A DNA stretch of 64,000 nt from Escherichia phage SD2. Made by a program: the position numbers and the translations under genes. Shown here piece by piece: positions 62,013 through 64,000 of the stretch. Within the stretch, counting starts at the first letter, position 1. Each line of letters starts with the position of its first letter. The stretch lies in sequence record PQ821640, one strand, 5' to 3'. The notes under the pieces are model-generated. The model worked only from the letters and a program-made list of their open reading frames with translations. It searched no databases and was not told where the DNA came from.

Positions 62013-62282
62013 CTAAAATGATTCGTTTGTCTCCATAATATATTGCATTTCCAAATCTTCCATATGTTTCTTAAATTGGTAAACAATTTCCGATGGGGAA
62101 ATATCTATATCAAAAAGTTCTTTTGTACCAGAATAGAACCTAATACCATCAACAATAAGGCCACCATAATAATCCCAATCACTTTCTCGTGAAAAAGGAT
62201 TAGGTTCTTCATAATAGTAATCTACTTCAACAATAATAGGTTCTTTATTATCTTGTTTATACTCAAAATCAAAAGTGTTCAT
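62013..62282 (-). CDS. hypothetical protein (89 aa)
   Basis: ORF whose stop and start abut neighbouring genes. Confidence 0.4.
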   Translation of the reverse strand: MNTFDFEYKQDNKEPIIVEVDYYYEEPNPFSRESDWDYYGGLIVDGIRFYSGTKELFDIDISPSEIVYQFKKHMEDLEMQYIMETNESF

Positions 62283-63226
62283 TATAAATCCTCGATAAGC
62301 AGTCTGCGGGTTTCATTTAAATCATCAATATTGTAGTTATCTCTTACATATTTAGCAAGAGCCAATCCTTTCTCAATACAAACATCAGGAGATTCGATTA
62401 AGTATTCTACAATATCTTTCCACTCTTTAACTGAATCAGCAAAGAAGATTAGGTCTTTAAATTCTTCAGTATAGTAGTTCTCTCGTGGAGAACAAACGAG
62501 TGGCAAACCTTTAGCACCAGCCTCAAGAATTTTTAAATTACTTTTGGCATTATTAAAATGATTATTTACTAATGGAGCTATGGAGATTTGATGACCATCG
62601 TATGCTTCCATATAACACTCATAAGGACGAATACCTTCATAAACACAATCTGGTTGAATCTCTTCTTTAATTTGCAACCATTGAGCACTACTTAACTCTT
62701 CGTGATCTCTACGAAATCCACATAAAGTTAAATCTTTACCAAAAGCAGGAAGAATTGCTAAATCATGTTTATGTGTTTCACTTCCCGCCCAAACCAGTGG
62801 GCTTTTAGAATAACGATCTTTAGTAAGAACAAACTGCCCTTCATCAAAAGGTAGTCCGTTAGGCACAATATGTACATTATCATTGTATTGGCTTAATTCA
62901 ACCTTTAATGCTGGAGTTGTTGTAGTTACAAGATCGCTTCTTTCAAGGAACCATTTTAGGTCATCTCGGATTTGATTTTCAAATAATCCTTCCAGCATAT
63001 GCCCTTCAGGAATAATTAAAGAATCATCCAGATCCATTACCAATTTAAACCCAAGTTGTTTAAGAGCCAGGAAACCTGGCTTTCCACGAGTTGGTACTCC
63101 ATTGAATACAAAAATATTATGCTTAGGATTAATAGTCAGTTTGCGTTTATATGGCAAAATGATTCTATGAAAATCACATACACTATACCTTTCATGTCCA
63201 CGTGTGTCAAGAATAATATTAGGCAT
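62282..63226 (-). CDS. glycosyltransferase-like protein (GT-B fold), paralog 1
   Basis: C-terminal SIAPLVNNHFNNAKSNLKILEAGAKGLPLVCSP resembles the GT-B sugar-donor motif; paralogous to next gene. Confidence 0.45.
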   Translation of the reverse strand: MPNIILDTRGHERYSVCDFHRIILPYKRKLTINPKHNIFVFNGVPTRGKPGFLALKQLGFKLVMDLDDSLIIPEGHMLEGLFENQIRDDLKWFLERSDLVTTTTPALKVELSQYNDNVHIVPNGLPFDEGQFVLTKDRYSKSPLVWAGSETHKHDLAILPAFGKDLTLCGFRRDHEELSSAQWLQIKEEIQPDCVYEGIRPYECYMEAYDGHQISIAPLVNNHFNNAKSNLKILEAGAKGLPLVCSPRENYYTEEFKDLIFFADSVKEWKDIVEYLIESPDVCIEKGLALAKYVRDNYNIDDLNETRRLLIEDL

Positions 63227-63237
63227 ATGGCTCCTTG

Positions 63238-64000
63238 TTAAAGACTTTCAATAACTTGACGACGCAGTTCATTGGCATCTGCAAGATTATAATTAAGACG
63301 AACGTGTTCTGCAAGCATCATACCACGATCTTCTGTGTATCTAGGGTTCCTCATTAGCTTGACAACTTCATAATGCCAAGATGCTTTGGAGTCTGCATAA
63401 ATAACAGCCTTTGCATCCACAGGATTGAAGTACGGCAGCACAGGAGAACAGATAATAGGAAGACCCTTTGCACCTGCTTCCAAAATCTTCAGATTGCTTT
63501 TACAGTTGTTGAAGTCATTATCTACCAGAGGAGCAATTGCAATACTGTGACCGTCATACACAGACATATACTCACCTAAATTTTTAATAGCTGGTTTATA
63601 CTGTGCATTTGGAATTTTACGTTTTACTTTAACCCACTCCGCAGTAGTTAGATACTGACTATTATTTCCAACAGGTGCAGAAGGATACACTTCATACCCT
63701 GCAATTGTCAATAGCGTATCATCAAATGTGTTAGCTACAAGAGATAAATCAGGTTCATGGCTTGCTCCTCCAGCCCAAACGATAGGCGTGTCAGAATAAC
63801 GGTCTTTTGTCAAAGTAAATTGACCTTCATCGTAAGGTAGTGCGTTTCTAATAACGACAACATTACGATTTAAATGACGAATTTTGTAAGCTAGGTATTC
63901 TGTTGTTACAGTAACAACATCTGCTAACTTAACCATCTCTACAATAGTCTTTGAGTGATTAGTAAATACGCCAGCCATATAATGTTCAGGATTAAGCGAA
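63238..64000 (-). CDS. glycosyltransferase-like protein (GT-B fold), paralog 2, 5-prime end outside window
   Basis: Same conserved core (IAIAPLVDNDFNNCKSNLKILEAGAKGLPIICSP); frame open to window edge, alignment with paralog suggests about 70 missing N-terminal residues. Confidence 0.45.
   Translation of the reverse strand, partial: SLNPEHYMAGVFTNHSKTIVEMVKLADVVTVTTEYLAYKIRHLNRNVVVIRNALPYDEGQFTLTKDRYSDTPIVWAGGASHEPDLSLVANTFDDTLLTIAGYEVYPSAPVGNNSQYLTTAEWVKVKRKIPNAQYKPAIKNLGEYMSVYDGHSIAIAPLVDNDFNNCKSNLKILEAGAKGLPIICSPVLPYFNPVDAKAVIYADSKASWHYEVVKLMRNPRYTEDRGMMLAEHVRLNYNLADANELRRQVIESL

Follow-up and report, generated by a model that had tools for sequence, protein, structure and literature searches.

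Virus-encoded glycosylation of virions is known from mycobacteriophages (capsid and tail tube) and from chloroviruses and mimivirus, whose capsid or fibril glycans contain rhamnose. Where phage DNA is the glycosylated molecule, all characterised cases begin with a ThyA-family or a 5mYOX enzyme (PMC13326640; bioRxiv 10.1101/2023.12.21.572611). Closest of all are genes that are already known: orthologues of phi92 gp163 and gp164 make up PHROG 7162 and appear as 'glycosyltransferase' in RefSeq (NC_052652, NC_052653), and the phi92 record carries a note of a predicted GT-B / TreT-like fold. The phi92 pair and its orthologues in Justusliebigvirus and Phapecoctavirus are the same genes as those described below for Escherichia phage SD2 (98-100% protein identity), and stand in the same order – gp164, gp163, gp162, primase/helicase. 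There is no substantive difference between them and the SD2 pair; the stretch of SD2 DNA at hand merely truncates gp164. Phi92-like and phAPEC8-like phages are popular for therapy because their host range is very broad, and their sugar chemistry takes about eight genes: four for glycosyltransferases and four rml genes.

Two paralogous genes beside the replication genes

The window – the whole stretch of SD2 DNA that was analysed, 64,000 nucleotides of record PQ821640 – comes from a phi92-like myophage (Justusliebigvirus) and is 99.6% identical to Escherichia phage W22. The features on which the argument draws are as follows.

18889-19365, plus strand: DNA methyltransferase gene
52996-53724, minus strand: DNA methyltransferase gene
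56417-59731: intein-containing DNA polymerase, a replication neighbour
60228-62000, minus strand: T7-type primase/helicase, next gene downstream on the same strand (open reading frame, and annotation in relatives)
62013-62282, minus strand: small acidic protein of 89 aa, pI 4.1, orthologue of phi92 gp162 (PHROG 4240, E 8e-35)
62282-63226, minus strand: paralogue 1, a complete GT-B glycosyltransferase gene, 314 aa, pI 5.3, orthologue of phi92 gp163 (98% identical)
62501-62545, minus strand: KSNLKILEAGAKGLP motif of paralogue 1 (aa 228-242), predicted NDP-sugar-binding helix; K228, S229, K232 and E235 are family-invariant
63231-63236, minus strand: ribosome-binding site AAGGAG, within the 11 nt that separate the paralogues, read from the sequence; the phi92 record annotates the same motif
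63238-64000, minus strand: paralogue 2, the 3' 78% of a second GT-B gene, orthologue of phi92 gp164 (residues 72-324 of 324), frame open to the window edge
63457-63501, minus strand: KSNLKILEAGAKGLP motif of paralogue 2, the same 15 aa, an identical peptide

The original prediction was of two neighbouring, paralogous minus-strand genes next to replication genes, and this is what is found. The proteins encoded at 62282-63226 and 63238-64000 are 43% identical over 253 aa (BLASTP, E 1e-67), which is well past chance, and a small open reading frame, the primase/helicase gene and the DNA polymerase gene adjoin them. The ATG of the gp162 orthologue shares one nucleotide with the stop codon of paralogue 1. 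Paralogue 2 is present as 253 codons, of which the ATG listed at 63978 is internal: from residue 72 onward the fragment is 99.2% identical to the 324-aa orthologue gp158 of phage PHB05, and the true start codon and the N-terminal 71 residues lie past the window end. A terminator scan found no minus-strand terminator-like site between the primase/helicase and the glycosyltransferase genes; promoter and terminator scans returned no more sites in the window than shuffled sequence is expected to give, and do not resolve the operon boundary.

The KSNLKILEAGAKGLP peptide is identical in the two copies, while 13 of the 45 bases that encode it differ, all of them synonymously; the motif has thus been kept by selection, and the same 13 differences rule out recent gene conversion as its source. 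Every family-invariant residue (an invariant column of a 38-sequence alignment) is present in both paralogues. The copy in paralogue 1 falls in helix 231-238 of the structural model and aligns to the donor-binding helix of TreT, at the second Glu of the EX7E motif, as expected from the GT-B donor-binding-like motif first noticed there. The two genes are genuine duplicated sugar-transferring enzymes, already annotated as such in public records. The ancestral copy looks like gp164, with gp163 a lineage-specific duplicate; since gp163 has diverged most in its N-terminal part, predicted to bind the acceptor, it presumably adds a sugar different from, or subsequent to, that added by gp164.

Fold and family of the paralogues

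An AlphaFold (AF2) model (pLDDT 93.6) has a GT-B fold, with two Rossmann-like domains and an inter-domain cleft. It most resembles GT4 enzymes (sucrose-phosphate synthase, BshA, PglA, PimA, TreT and SdgB); its resemblance to the alpha- and beta-glucosyltransferases of T4 is weaker. The best Foldseek matches were BshA, TreT, MshA, SdgB, PglA, GtfC and Gtf3, with neither T4 AGT nor BGT among the top 50; when a profile was run against every PDB sequence (E <= 10), TreT, MshA and SPS were recovered, and again neither T4 enzyme. Paralogue 1 matches PHROG 7162 (phage glycosyltransferase) over its full length (E 4e-145, residues 1-314, 309-position profile), and the truncated paralogue 2 matches it at E 9e-119. 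Pfam scores are marginal, gp163 reaching 26.8 bits on PF13524, barely above the gathering cutoff of 25, and the gp164 fragment and the full-length PHB05 protein reaching 15-19 bits, below the cutoffs of Glyco_trans_1_2 / Glyco_trans_1_4. A search of viral folds in BFVD returned only other generic or unnamed viral glycosyltransferases.

Despite the shared fold, the phage proteins depart from retaining GT4 enzymes (sucrose-phosphate synthase Tll1590, TreT, BshA, MshA, PglA, PimA, SdgB, TarM) in several respects. Identity is 10-16%, and the phage protein has about 60-100 residues fewer. The second Glu of EX7E (E235) is invariant and aligned with that of TreT, whereas in place of the first gp163 has Ala and gp164 has Cys. 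In addition, the family has invariant residues of its own: R21, DxDD at 65-68 and H76 in the N-terminal domain, and an HxxD loop (H152, D155). These may point to a catalytic base and a different stereochemistry. Both genes are predicted to encode active, divergent GT4-like GT-B glycosyltransferases. On the model, the C-terminal Rossmann domain would bind an NDP-sugar by way of the WAG(G/S)xxHxxD loop and the KSNLKILEAGAKG helix, and the N-terminal domain, with R21, D65-x-D67-D68 and H76, would bind the acceptor.

The cassette in related and unrelated phages

The description as a 'pair' of glycosyltransferases needs correcting. Two lie in the window, but in complete relatives they are half of a four-gene cluster, the other two members of which are encoded just past the window end: gp166, gp165, gp164 and gp163 are consecutive in phi92, PaulScherrer and PHB05, and the SD2 pair corresponds to the downstream half. 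The genes directly upstream of gp164/gp163, gp165 and gp166, encode two small GT-A-like enzymes. NCBIfam profiles yielded no usable match for the four cassette proteins or for three homologues. In PVP-SE1 the glycosyltransferase genes are absent, and only one gene, of 110 aa, stands between the homologues of gp167 and gp162. Because these flanking backbone genes are nearly adjacent in PVP-SE1, the cassette looks inserted, and its position on the replication side is therefore probably an accident of that insertion. Gp162 itself was considered as a cassette component and ruled out, having a homologue in PVP-SE1, which lacks the glycosyltransferases; the 89-aa gene that follows the glycosyltransferase in L012 has no detectable homology to it. 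Across Stephanstirmvirinae the cassette is co-oriented with the early/middle replication genes, not the late genes, and is probably co-transcribed with them.

Outside this group the surroundings change. Small, unrelated phages and prophages (L009, L012/L027, L021, L023, L101, L081 and Streptomyces phage Zuko) carry a homologous module of GT-A plus GT-B genes, in some cases with a gp166-like gene as well, immediately ahead of terS, terL, portal and capsid genes. In L009 the module runs in the same direction as the structural operon and diverges from the replication genes. A Pseudomonas prophage has an Ig-like (Big_2) structural-type protein encoded directly upstream, and in Burkholderia dolosa and Trinickia a gp164-like gene (42-43% identical) comes after an intimin/invasin-type adhesin; such adjacency to adhesin and Ig-domain genes occurs in few genomes, some of them related. 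Bacterial homologues are found in proteins that combine several glycosyltransferases, TPR repeats and methyltransferases (some of them giant) and in glycan-biosynthesis clusters of the polysaccharide type. An exact-peptide-pattern scan of genome contigs found at least 8 loci, and a metagenomic clade of near homologues comprises 48 loci, with a C5-cytosine methylase about 3 kb from the glycosyltransferase and a PAPS-reductase-like gene as well.

A possible source of the donor sugar is present in the same genomes. The dTDP-rhamnose pathway genes rmlA-D were confirmed by Pfam in PHB05, and the distributions of RmlC and of the glycosyltransferase match (about 54 and 53 phage records, respectively, at >=95% identity; 77 and 74 at 60-80%). 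This link is correlative, because phage ESCO37 keeps the glycosyltransferase while rmlA and rmlB are absent.

Candidate acceptors

The explanation that best fits these data, with a probability of about 0.4, is that a glycan containing rhamnose is built up step by step on an acceptor other than DNA. We infer that the four cassette enzymes would act in turn to make an oligosaccharide of a few sugars, one or more of them derived from dTDP-L-rhamnose, which the phage's own rmlABCD could supply. The first choice of acceptor would be a protein of the phage particle, for which mycobacteriophages and chloroviruses offer parallels, and the second a host envelope glycoconjugate. That the acceptor is something other than DNA, of whatever kind, is somewhat better than an even bet; a virion protein is a tentative choice that falls clearly short of even odds, and a host envelope glycan is unlikely. 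The position of the module beside packaging and structural, Ig-domain and adhesin genes is a pointer to a virion or protein acceptor. Against this explanation stand the arrangement in Stephanstirmvirinae, where the cassette probably belongs with early/middle rather than late genes, and the features of the gp165 family and the cytosine methylases discussed below. Ser/Thr-rich C-terminal tails of structural proteins were also considered as glycosylation sites: only the tail sheath has a short S/N/T-rich tail, and the comparison has no evidential value.

The original prediction likened the pair to the T-even alpha and beta glucosyltransferases that decorate DNA, and Olsen and colleagues reportedly suggested DNA glycosylation in 2020. 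The analogy is not supported. The SD2 pair lacks sequence similarity to the T4 enzymes (GT72, GT63), which are not its best structural matches either, and no partner that makes hmC, hmU or 5hoC, of the kind that accompanies the T4 enzymes, arabinosyl-5hoC or the 5mYOX-associated GT-A/GT-B enzymes, was found in the PHB05 genome, which is complete, nearly identical to SD2 and stood in for the SD2 genome past the window. ThyA-family hydroxymethylases/hydroxylases and TET/JBP were not found in PHB05 (69 further proteins of this phage, scanned with Pfam, gave no Thymidylat_synt or TET_JBP either), and its only thymidylate synthase is of the ThyX type. This 323-aa 'thymidylate synthase' was examined as a hidden hydroxymethylase and rejected, as it belongs to the ThyX family (PHROG 85, E 1e-108) and has a near-canonical THR...S...S.R motif. 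The statement that no base-modifying enzyme is visible in the window stands for hydroxymethylases and hydroxylases but overlooks the two DNA methyltransferase genes. DNA glycosylation would now require that a sugar, be it rhamnose or some other, is attached to a base hydroxylated by an enzyme that current profiles do not recognise, and we consider it unlikely. Several observations speak for it: the cassette adjoins primase/helicase and polymerase genes; members of the gp165 GT-A family give sub-threshold matches to TET-associated glycosyltransferases (TAGT) in 7 of 8 cases (25.5 bits for the cassette's partner GT-A, against a threshold of 27.5), have an R...DDD...ED pattern that resembles phage DNA GT-A enzymes, and match faintly the PHROG of the T-even beta-glucosyl-HMC alpha-glucosyltransferase; a C5-cytosine methylase occurs in PHB05, as it does close to the glycosyltransferase in the metagenomic clade; GT4-like DNA glycosyltransferases exist (PMC13326640); and a site just ahead of the terminase genes would fit modification before packaging. 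However, the PHB05 methylase lies about 90 kb from the cassette and no dioxygenase was found, unlike the clustering of 5mYOX/TET-type systems, and no candidate hydroxylase was found in 21 kb of the 36-kb L009 contig, which carries the module. That the same GT-A plus GT-B module heads packaging and structural genes in small unrelated phages also argues against DNA, as does the absence of phi92-like phages from the list in a published survey that searched NCBI phage genomes with GT-A HMMs. DNA glycosyltransferases are built round a basic DNA-binding groove, whereas gp163 is acidic (pI 5.3) and the family median is 6.7, although the isoelectric point is a weak test of DNA binding, gp164 having a pI of 8.2 and the family ranging from 5.1 to 9.4. 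Finally, in contrast to the DNA of T-even and newer DNA-glycosyltransferase phages, that of phi92-like phages is restriction-sensitive (PMC8594841), the phages being reported as 'exceptionally susceptible' to RM systems (PMC8594841; PMC10844046). Because the DNA remains restrictable, its glycosylation would have to be post-replicative and limited in sequence context. That the cassette and the dTDP-rhamnose pathway attach a glycan with rhamnose to a limited set of sites in the phage DNA, with neither ThyA nor a recognisable TET/JBP, is quite improbable; if true, this would be DNA hypermodification of a new kind, and one that agrees with the restriction sensitivity reported for these phages.

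Two further targets lie outside both DNA and the virion. Cytoplasmic enzymes could add sugars, rhamnose among them, to a lipid-linked or lipid A-core intermediate of the host envelope (LPS core, ECA, NGR glycan or a capsule precursor), altering receptor glycans and, for example, blocking superinfection or keeping progeny from being trapped on cell debris. Surface glycans and LPS core glucose are the receptors of these phages (PMC8594841; PMC11990801), and prophage-encoded TarP, at least as it is cited in bioRxiv 10.1101/2023.12.21.572611, offers a precedent. The nearest folds include enzymes of lipid-linked or envelope glycopolymers (PglA, PglH, PimA, WaaG, WaaB, TarM), bacterial homologues lie in polysaccharide-type clusters and giant multi-glycosyltransferase proteins, the cassette is in an early/middle transcription unit, and PHROG 7162 is placed in the category 'moron, auxiliary metabolic gene and host takeover'. 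Yet the cassette comes without a gene for a membrane anchor, flippase, initiating transferase or ligase, and the place of the module at the head of the packaging/structural operon in many small phages would be left unexplained. We know of no envelope remodelling of this sort in a strictly lytic coliphage, and regard the chances of this reading as slim. Still less probable, and by a wide measure, is a small acceptor: a soluble glycoside or disaccharide, or a nucleoside-like metabolite made by the genes upstream in PHB05 (TerD, TelA, vWA-TerF, ComF-like PRTase, HAD, NADAR and Macro). Sucrose-phosphate synthase, TreT, BshA, MshA, GlgM and tetrahydrobiopterin glucosyltransferase, all with small acceptors, are among the top folds, and in phage PaulScherrer the annotation reads 'putative disaccharide synthase'; but an endolysin gene and several small genes stand between the Ter cluster and the cassette, the GT-A/GT-B module occurs in small phages without any Ter genes, and four glycosyltransferases are many for a single small product.

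The analysis chiefly narrows the options for the cassette's target. DNA, a virion component and a host target were all open at the outset; DNA is now disfavoured, and the evidence favours the virion or host direction. Each outcome would matter in its own way: a DNA target would mean new chemistry, a host-surface target a new receptor-masking strategy of a lytic phage, and a virion target the first glycosylated coliphage particle, with a bearing on immune recognition and on pharmacokinetics in therapy. To our knowledge, neither a glycosylated virion protein nor an altered host glycan has been shown in any phi92-like phage. That the cassette is the first virion-protein glycosylation system of a coliphage is a possibility we hold with reserve, while judging it more likely than a site-limited glycan on DNA. 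Virion glycosylation systems unite viral glycosyltransferases with a supply of NDP-sugar, and phi92-like relatives likewise carry four glycosyltransferases and rmlA-D; in contrast to those systems, the phi92-like cassette sits in the replication region.

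The gene pair and its setting

At the right end of the window lie the orthologues of phi92 gp163 and gp164, with replication genes downstream on the same strand:

63238-64000, minus strand: GT-B paralogue 2 (gp164 orthologue), frame still open where the window ends, 253 codons visible
11-nt spacer between the paralogues, minus strand: ribosome-binding site AAGGAG, read from the sequence
62282-63226, minus strand: GT-B paralogue 1 (gp163 orthologue), complete ORF of 314 aa
62013-62282, minus strand: gp162 orthologue, 89-aa ORF downstream, overlapping the stop codon of paralogue 1 by one base
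60228-62000, minus strand: T7-type primase/helicase
56417-59731, minus strand: intein-containing T7-type DNA polymerase, downstream of the primase/helicase

The original prediction – two adjacent paralogous genes with a common motif, beside replication genes – is borne out: the products are 43% identical across 253 residues (E 1e-67), and both contain the 15-residue peptide KSNLKILEAGAKGLP. The ATG at 63978 is internal to paralogue 2. The DNA encoding KSNLKILEAGAKGLP differs between the paralogues at 13 of 45 positions, all of them synonymous: to judge from these changes the peptide is kept by selection, and recent gene conversion is ruled out as the source of its identity.

At pI 4.1 the gp162 orthologue is strongly acidic, and its translation is coupled to that of the glycosyltransferase gene. 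Vequintavirinae without the glycosyltransferase cassette described below also conserve gp162, which places it in the replication-side backbone. The DNA polymerase carries an in-frame insertion of 244 aa (approximately 57269-58000) after residue 577 of the 859-aa enzyme of PHB05, a near-identical complete genome. The same insertion is labeled an intein in the record of phage PaulScherrer and is missing from PHB05; presence of the intein thus varies across the genus.

Over its final 3 kb the window shares 99.6% identity with Escherichia phage W22 and 98-99% with about 50 phi92-like myophages (genus Justusliebigvirus, subfamily Stephanstirmvirinae). The phi92 record describes the pair as 'predicted trehalose-synthase TreT fold' and 'predicted glycosyl-transferase GT-B fold', RefSeq as glycosyltransferases, and the BASEL phage PaulScherrer record as 'putative disaccharide synthase'; PHROG 7162 matches both over their full length (E 4e-145 and 9e-119). 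Dozens of public genomes thus already annotate the pair. Five 'Campylobacter phage' records of ~146-151 kb give C. jejuni as host (MG065645, MG065639, MG065656, MG065689, MG065650). Four, phi92-like, are 98-100% identical to the window in the segment or protein tested, and MG065650 is only 64% identical to gp162, like Phapecoctavirus records; the host label of all five looks doubtful, with contaminating coliphages possibly the source.

Fold, conserved residues and the four-gene cassette

Pfam family Glyco_trans_1_2 matches gp163 weakly (26.8 bits; cutoff 25), and gp164 falls below Pfam thresholds. Relatives were collected (n = 57) and aligned (n = 38), and a structure was predicted for gp163. 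The model is of high confidence (pLDDT 93.6, pTM 0.91) and has two Rossmann-like domains; its fold matches include HepE (23.0), PglA (22.7), BshA (22.5), PglH/WlaC (22.4), PimA (21.9) and TreT (21.8), and there are also matches to adhesin O-glycosyltransferases. A profile search of PDB sequences aligns KSNLKILEAGAKGLP with the donor-site helix of TreT. The GT-B fold originally proposed is correct. Within the peptide, E235 is the counterpart of the second Glu of EX7E, the first being replaced by Ala in gp163 and Cys in gp164. Ten residues are invariant in the 38-sequence alignment (R21, D67, D68, N123, H152, D155, K228, S229, K232, E235) and three nearly so (D65, H76, D98). All are retained in both paralogues, and both are therefore probably active enzymes. 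Among 1.84 billion representative proteins, profile searching recovered 3,789 relatives with E < 1e-30. Some occur as domains within giant proteins that also bear GT2, TPR and methyltransferase domains; one such protein is encoded in a typical glycan-biosynthesis cluster (DegT aminotransferase, hexapeptide transferase, radical-SAM enzyme, methyltransferases).

In phi92, PaulScherrer and PHB05 the pair makes up the downstream half of a run of four glycosyltransferase-like genes:

gp166: 187 aa, PHROG 14179
gp165: 228 aa, GT-A fold, PHROG 2456
gp164 and gp163: the two GT-B paralogues, present in the window

Salmonella phage PVP-SE1 (Vequintavirinae) has a single 110-aa gene between homologues of the flanking gp167 and gp162. 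The glycosyltransferase genes thus seem to have entered a conserved backbone as a cassette, at a point just ahead of the primase/helicase gene, and the nearness to replication genes that prompted the T-even analogy probably reflects this landing site. Klebsiella Stephanstirmvirinae have only a gp166-like gene and one GT-B gene, whose product shares 66% identity with gp164 and 38% with gp163. Because distant homologues are consistently nearer gp164, this copy looks ancestral, and gp163 looks like a duplicate limited to E. coli-infecting lineages. Natural chimeras with a gp164-type N-terminal and a gp163-type C-terminal part, joined near residue 140 or at KSNLKILEAGAKGLP, occur in some relatives (proteins P0012, P0020, P0021; locus L107 5001-5945). 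In one 145-kb contig a chimera is the sole GT-B gene, in place of both paralogues, which looks like the result of unequal recombination between tandem copies.

DNA as a possible acceptor

In all characterized cases of glycosylated phage bases a hydroxyl is installed first – by a ThyA-family enzyme (hmC, hmU, 5-hydroxy-C) or a TET/JBP-type dioxygenase – and the sugar is placed on it (PMC13326640; bioRxiv 10.1101/2023.12.21.572611). Base-hydroxylating enzymes were sought in the complete genome of PHB05, whose tested genes are 99-100% identical to those of the window. The annotated thymidylate synthase is of the ThyX and not the ThyA type (Pfam Thy1; PHROG 85, E 1e-108). When 69 further proteins, each at least 100 aa long, were scanned against Pfam, neither Thymidylat_synt nor TET_JBP was found (for part of the scan, among the best 25 of 27 families, the other two being weaker than E 4.6e-4); a C5-cytosine methylase and an N6/N4 methylase were present. 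Phi92-like phages are reported to be exceptionally susceptible to restriction-modification (PMC8594841), as a later study repeats (PMC10844046), and global base glycosylation is therefore very unlikely. The comparison with the DNA glucosyltransferases of T-even phages is not supported.

Some features of gp165 hint at DNA: seven of eight homologues give sub-threshold matches to the TET-associated glycosyltransferase family (best 25.5 bits; cutoff 27.5), the R...DDD...ED pattern resembles the motif of phage DNA GT-A enzymes, and the PHROG for the T-even beta-glucosyl-HMC alpha-glucosyltransferase is matched faintly. In one 48-locus metagenomic clade, genes for a C5 methylase and a PAPS-reductase-like protein also lie within a few kb of the glycosyltransferase. 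However, phi92-like phages are absent from the list of a published HMM survey of DNA-type GT-A enzymes in NCBI genomes, and we consider a site-restricted, non-canonical DNA modification unlikely. That the cassette instead makes a small-molecule product is less probable still.

Candidate protein acceptors, likely sugar donor and a proposed pathway

The better-supported direction is the fallback of the original prediction, a virion or host target. At least 552 viral stretches in IMG/VR encode relatives. Several unrelated small phages and prophages share a module of a gp165-like GT-A gene followed by a gp164-like GT-B gene, sometimes preceded by a gp166-like gene, immediately upstream of small and large terminase, portal and capsid genes:

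L009, 36-kb contig: GT-A/GT-B pair opens the structural operon, divergent from replication genes; no candidate hydroxylase visible within the 21 kb read
L012/L027, L021 and L023: module upstream of terminase/portal/capsid genes
L101, prophage in the Pseudomonas silvicola chromosome: same position
L081, representative of the 48-locus metagenomic clade mentioned above: same position
Streptomyces phage Zuko: nucleotide-sugar epimerase gene, then glycosyltransferase

The gene directly upstream in the Pseudomonas prophage codes for a protein of 213 aa whose Ig-like Big_2 domain is of a kind known from phage structural proteins. Burkholderia dolosa (L007 3025-8440) and Trinickia sp. (L103 1765-7918) share a conserved order of three genes, which encode an inverse autotransporter adhesin of the intimin/invasin type, a protein of 556-571 aa that matches no family, and a GT-B enzyme 42-43% identical to gp164; this may be an adhesin glycosylation system. 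These contexts – a small and partly phylogenetically linked sample – and the adhesin O-glycosyltransferase fold matches point towards protein acceptors. A virion protein is our first choice (probability about 0.35); a host envelope glycoconjugate comes second, and is on balance doubtful. The tail sheath gene (24536-25942, plus strand) encodes at its 3' end a short Ser/Asn/Thr-rich tail, …TNRTANSQNSNSSTVSS, which is not evidence by itself, and would be one candidate site if virion proteins are glycosylated.

Phi92-like and phAPEC8-like phages carry a complete dTDP-rhamnose pathway, and rhamnose was speculated to be placed on hydroxymethylated nucleotides (Olsen et al. 2020; PMC7552041); rhamnose on DNA has already been both raised and doubted in print. 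RmlA, RmlB, RmlC and RmlD were confirmed by Pfam in PHB05, where their genes lie outside the window at 24.5-27.8 kb. Across 50,697 phage records, RmlC and the glycosyltransferase are distributed alike (~54 vs 53 records at ≥95% identity; 77 vs 74 at 60-80%); one or more of the four enzymes therefore likely use dTDP-L-rhamnose as donor. This association is correlative, because phage ESCO37 keeps the glycosyltransferase without rmlA and rmlB, and the nucleotide sugar can also come from the host.

The analysis demonstrates the fold, the paralogy, the architecture of the cassette, its co-occurrence with rml genes and, in PHB05, the lack of recognizable base hydroxylases; for donor, order of action and acceptor we infer the following. 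The products of gp163 and gp164 would be two steps of a four-enzyme pathway that builds, on an acceptor other than DNA, a short glycan probably containing rhamnose. The C-terminal domain would hold the NDP-sugar; if it works as in GT4 enzymes, the diphosphate would be contacted by K228 and K232, and the ribose by E235. The N-terminal domain would pick the acceptor; it is here that the paralogues diverge most, and thus the two enzymes probably work on separate intermediates as the glycan is extended. In all, these therapeutically popular phages invest eight genes in sugar chemistry.

Just upstream of the cassette in PHB05, and outside the window, lies a Ter-type gene block (L004 16900-28500; record ~107.8-119.4 kb) with TerD, TelA, vWA-TerF, TerC, ComF-like PRTase, CapR, HAD phosphatase, NADAR, Macro and DUF4326 domains. 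In content it is similar to the bacterial Ter-linked 'nucleoside-like metabolite' and ADP-ribose-processing gene sets.
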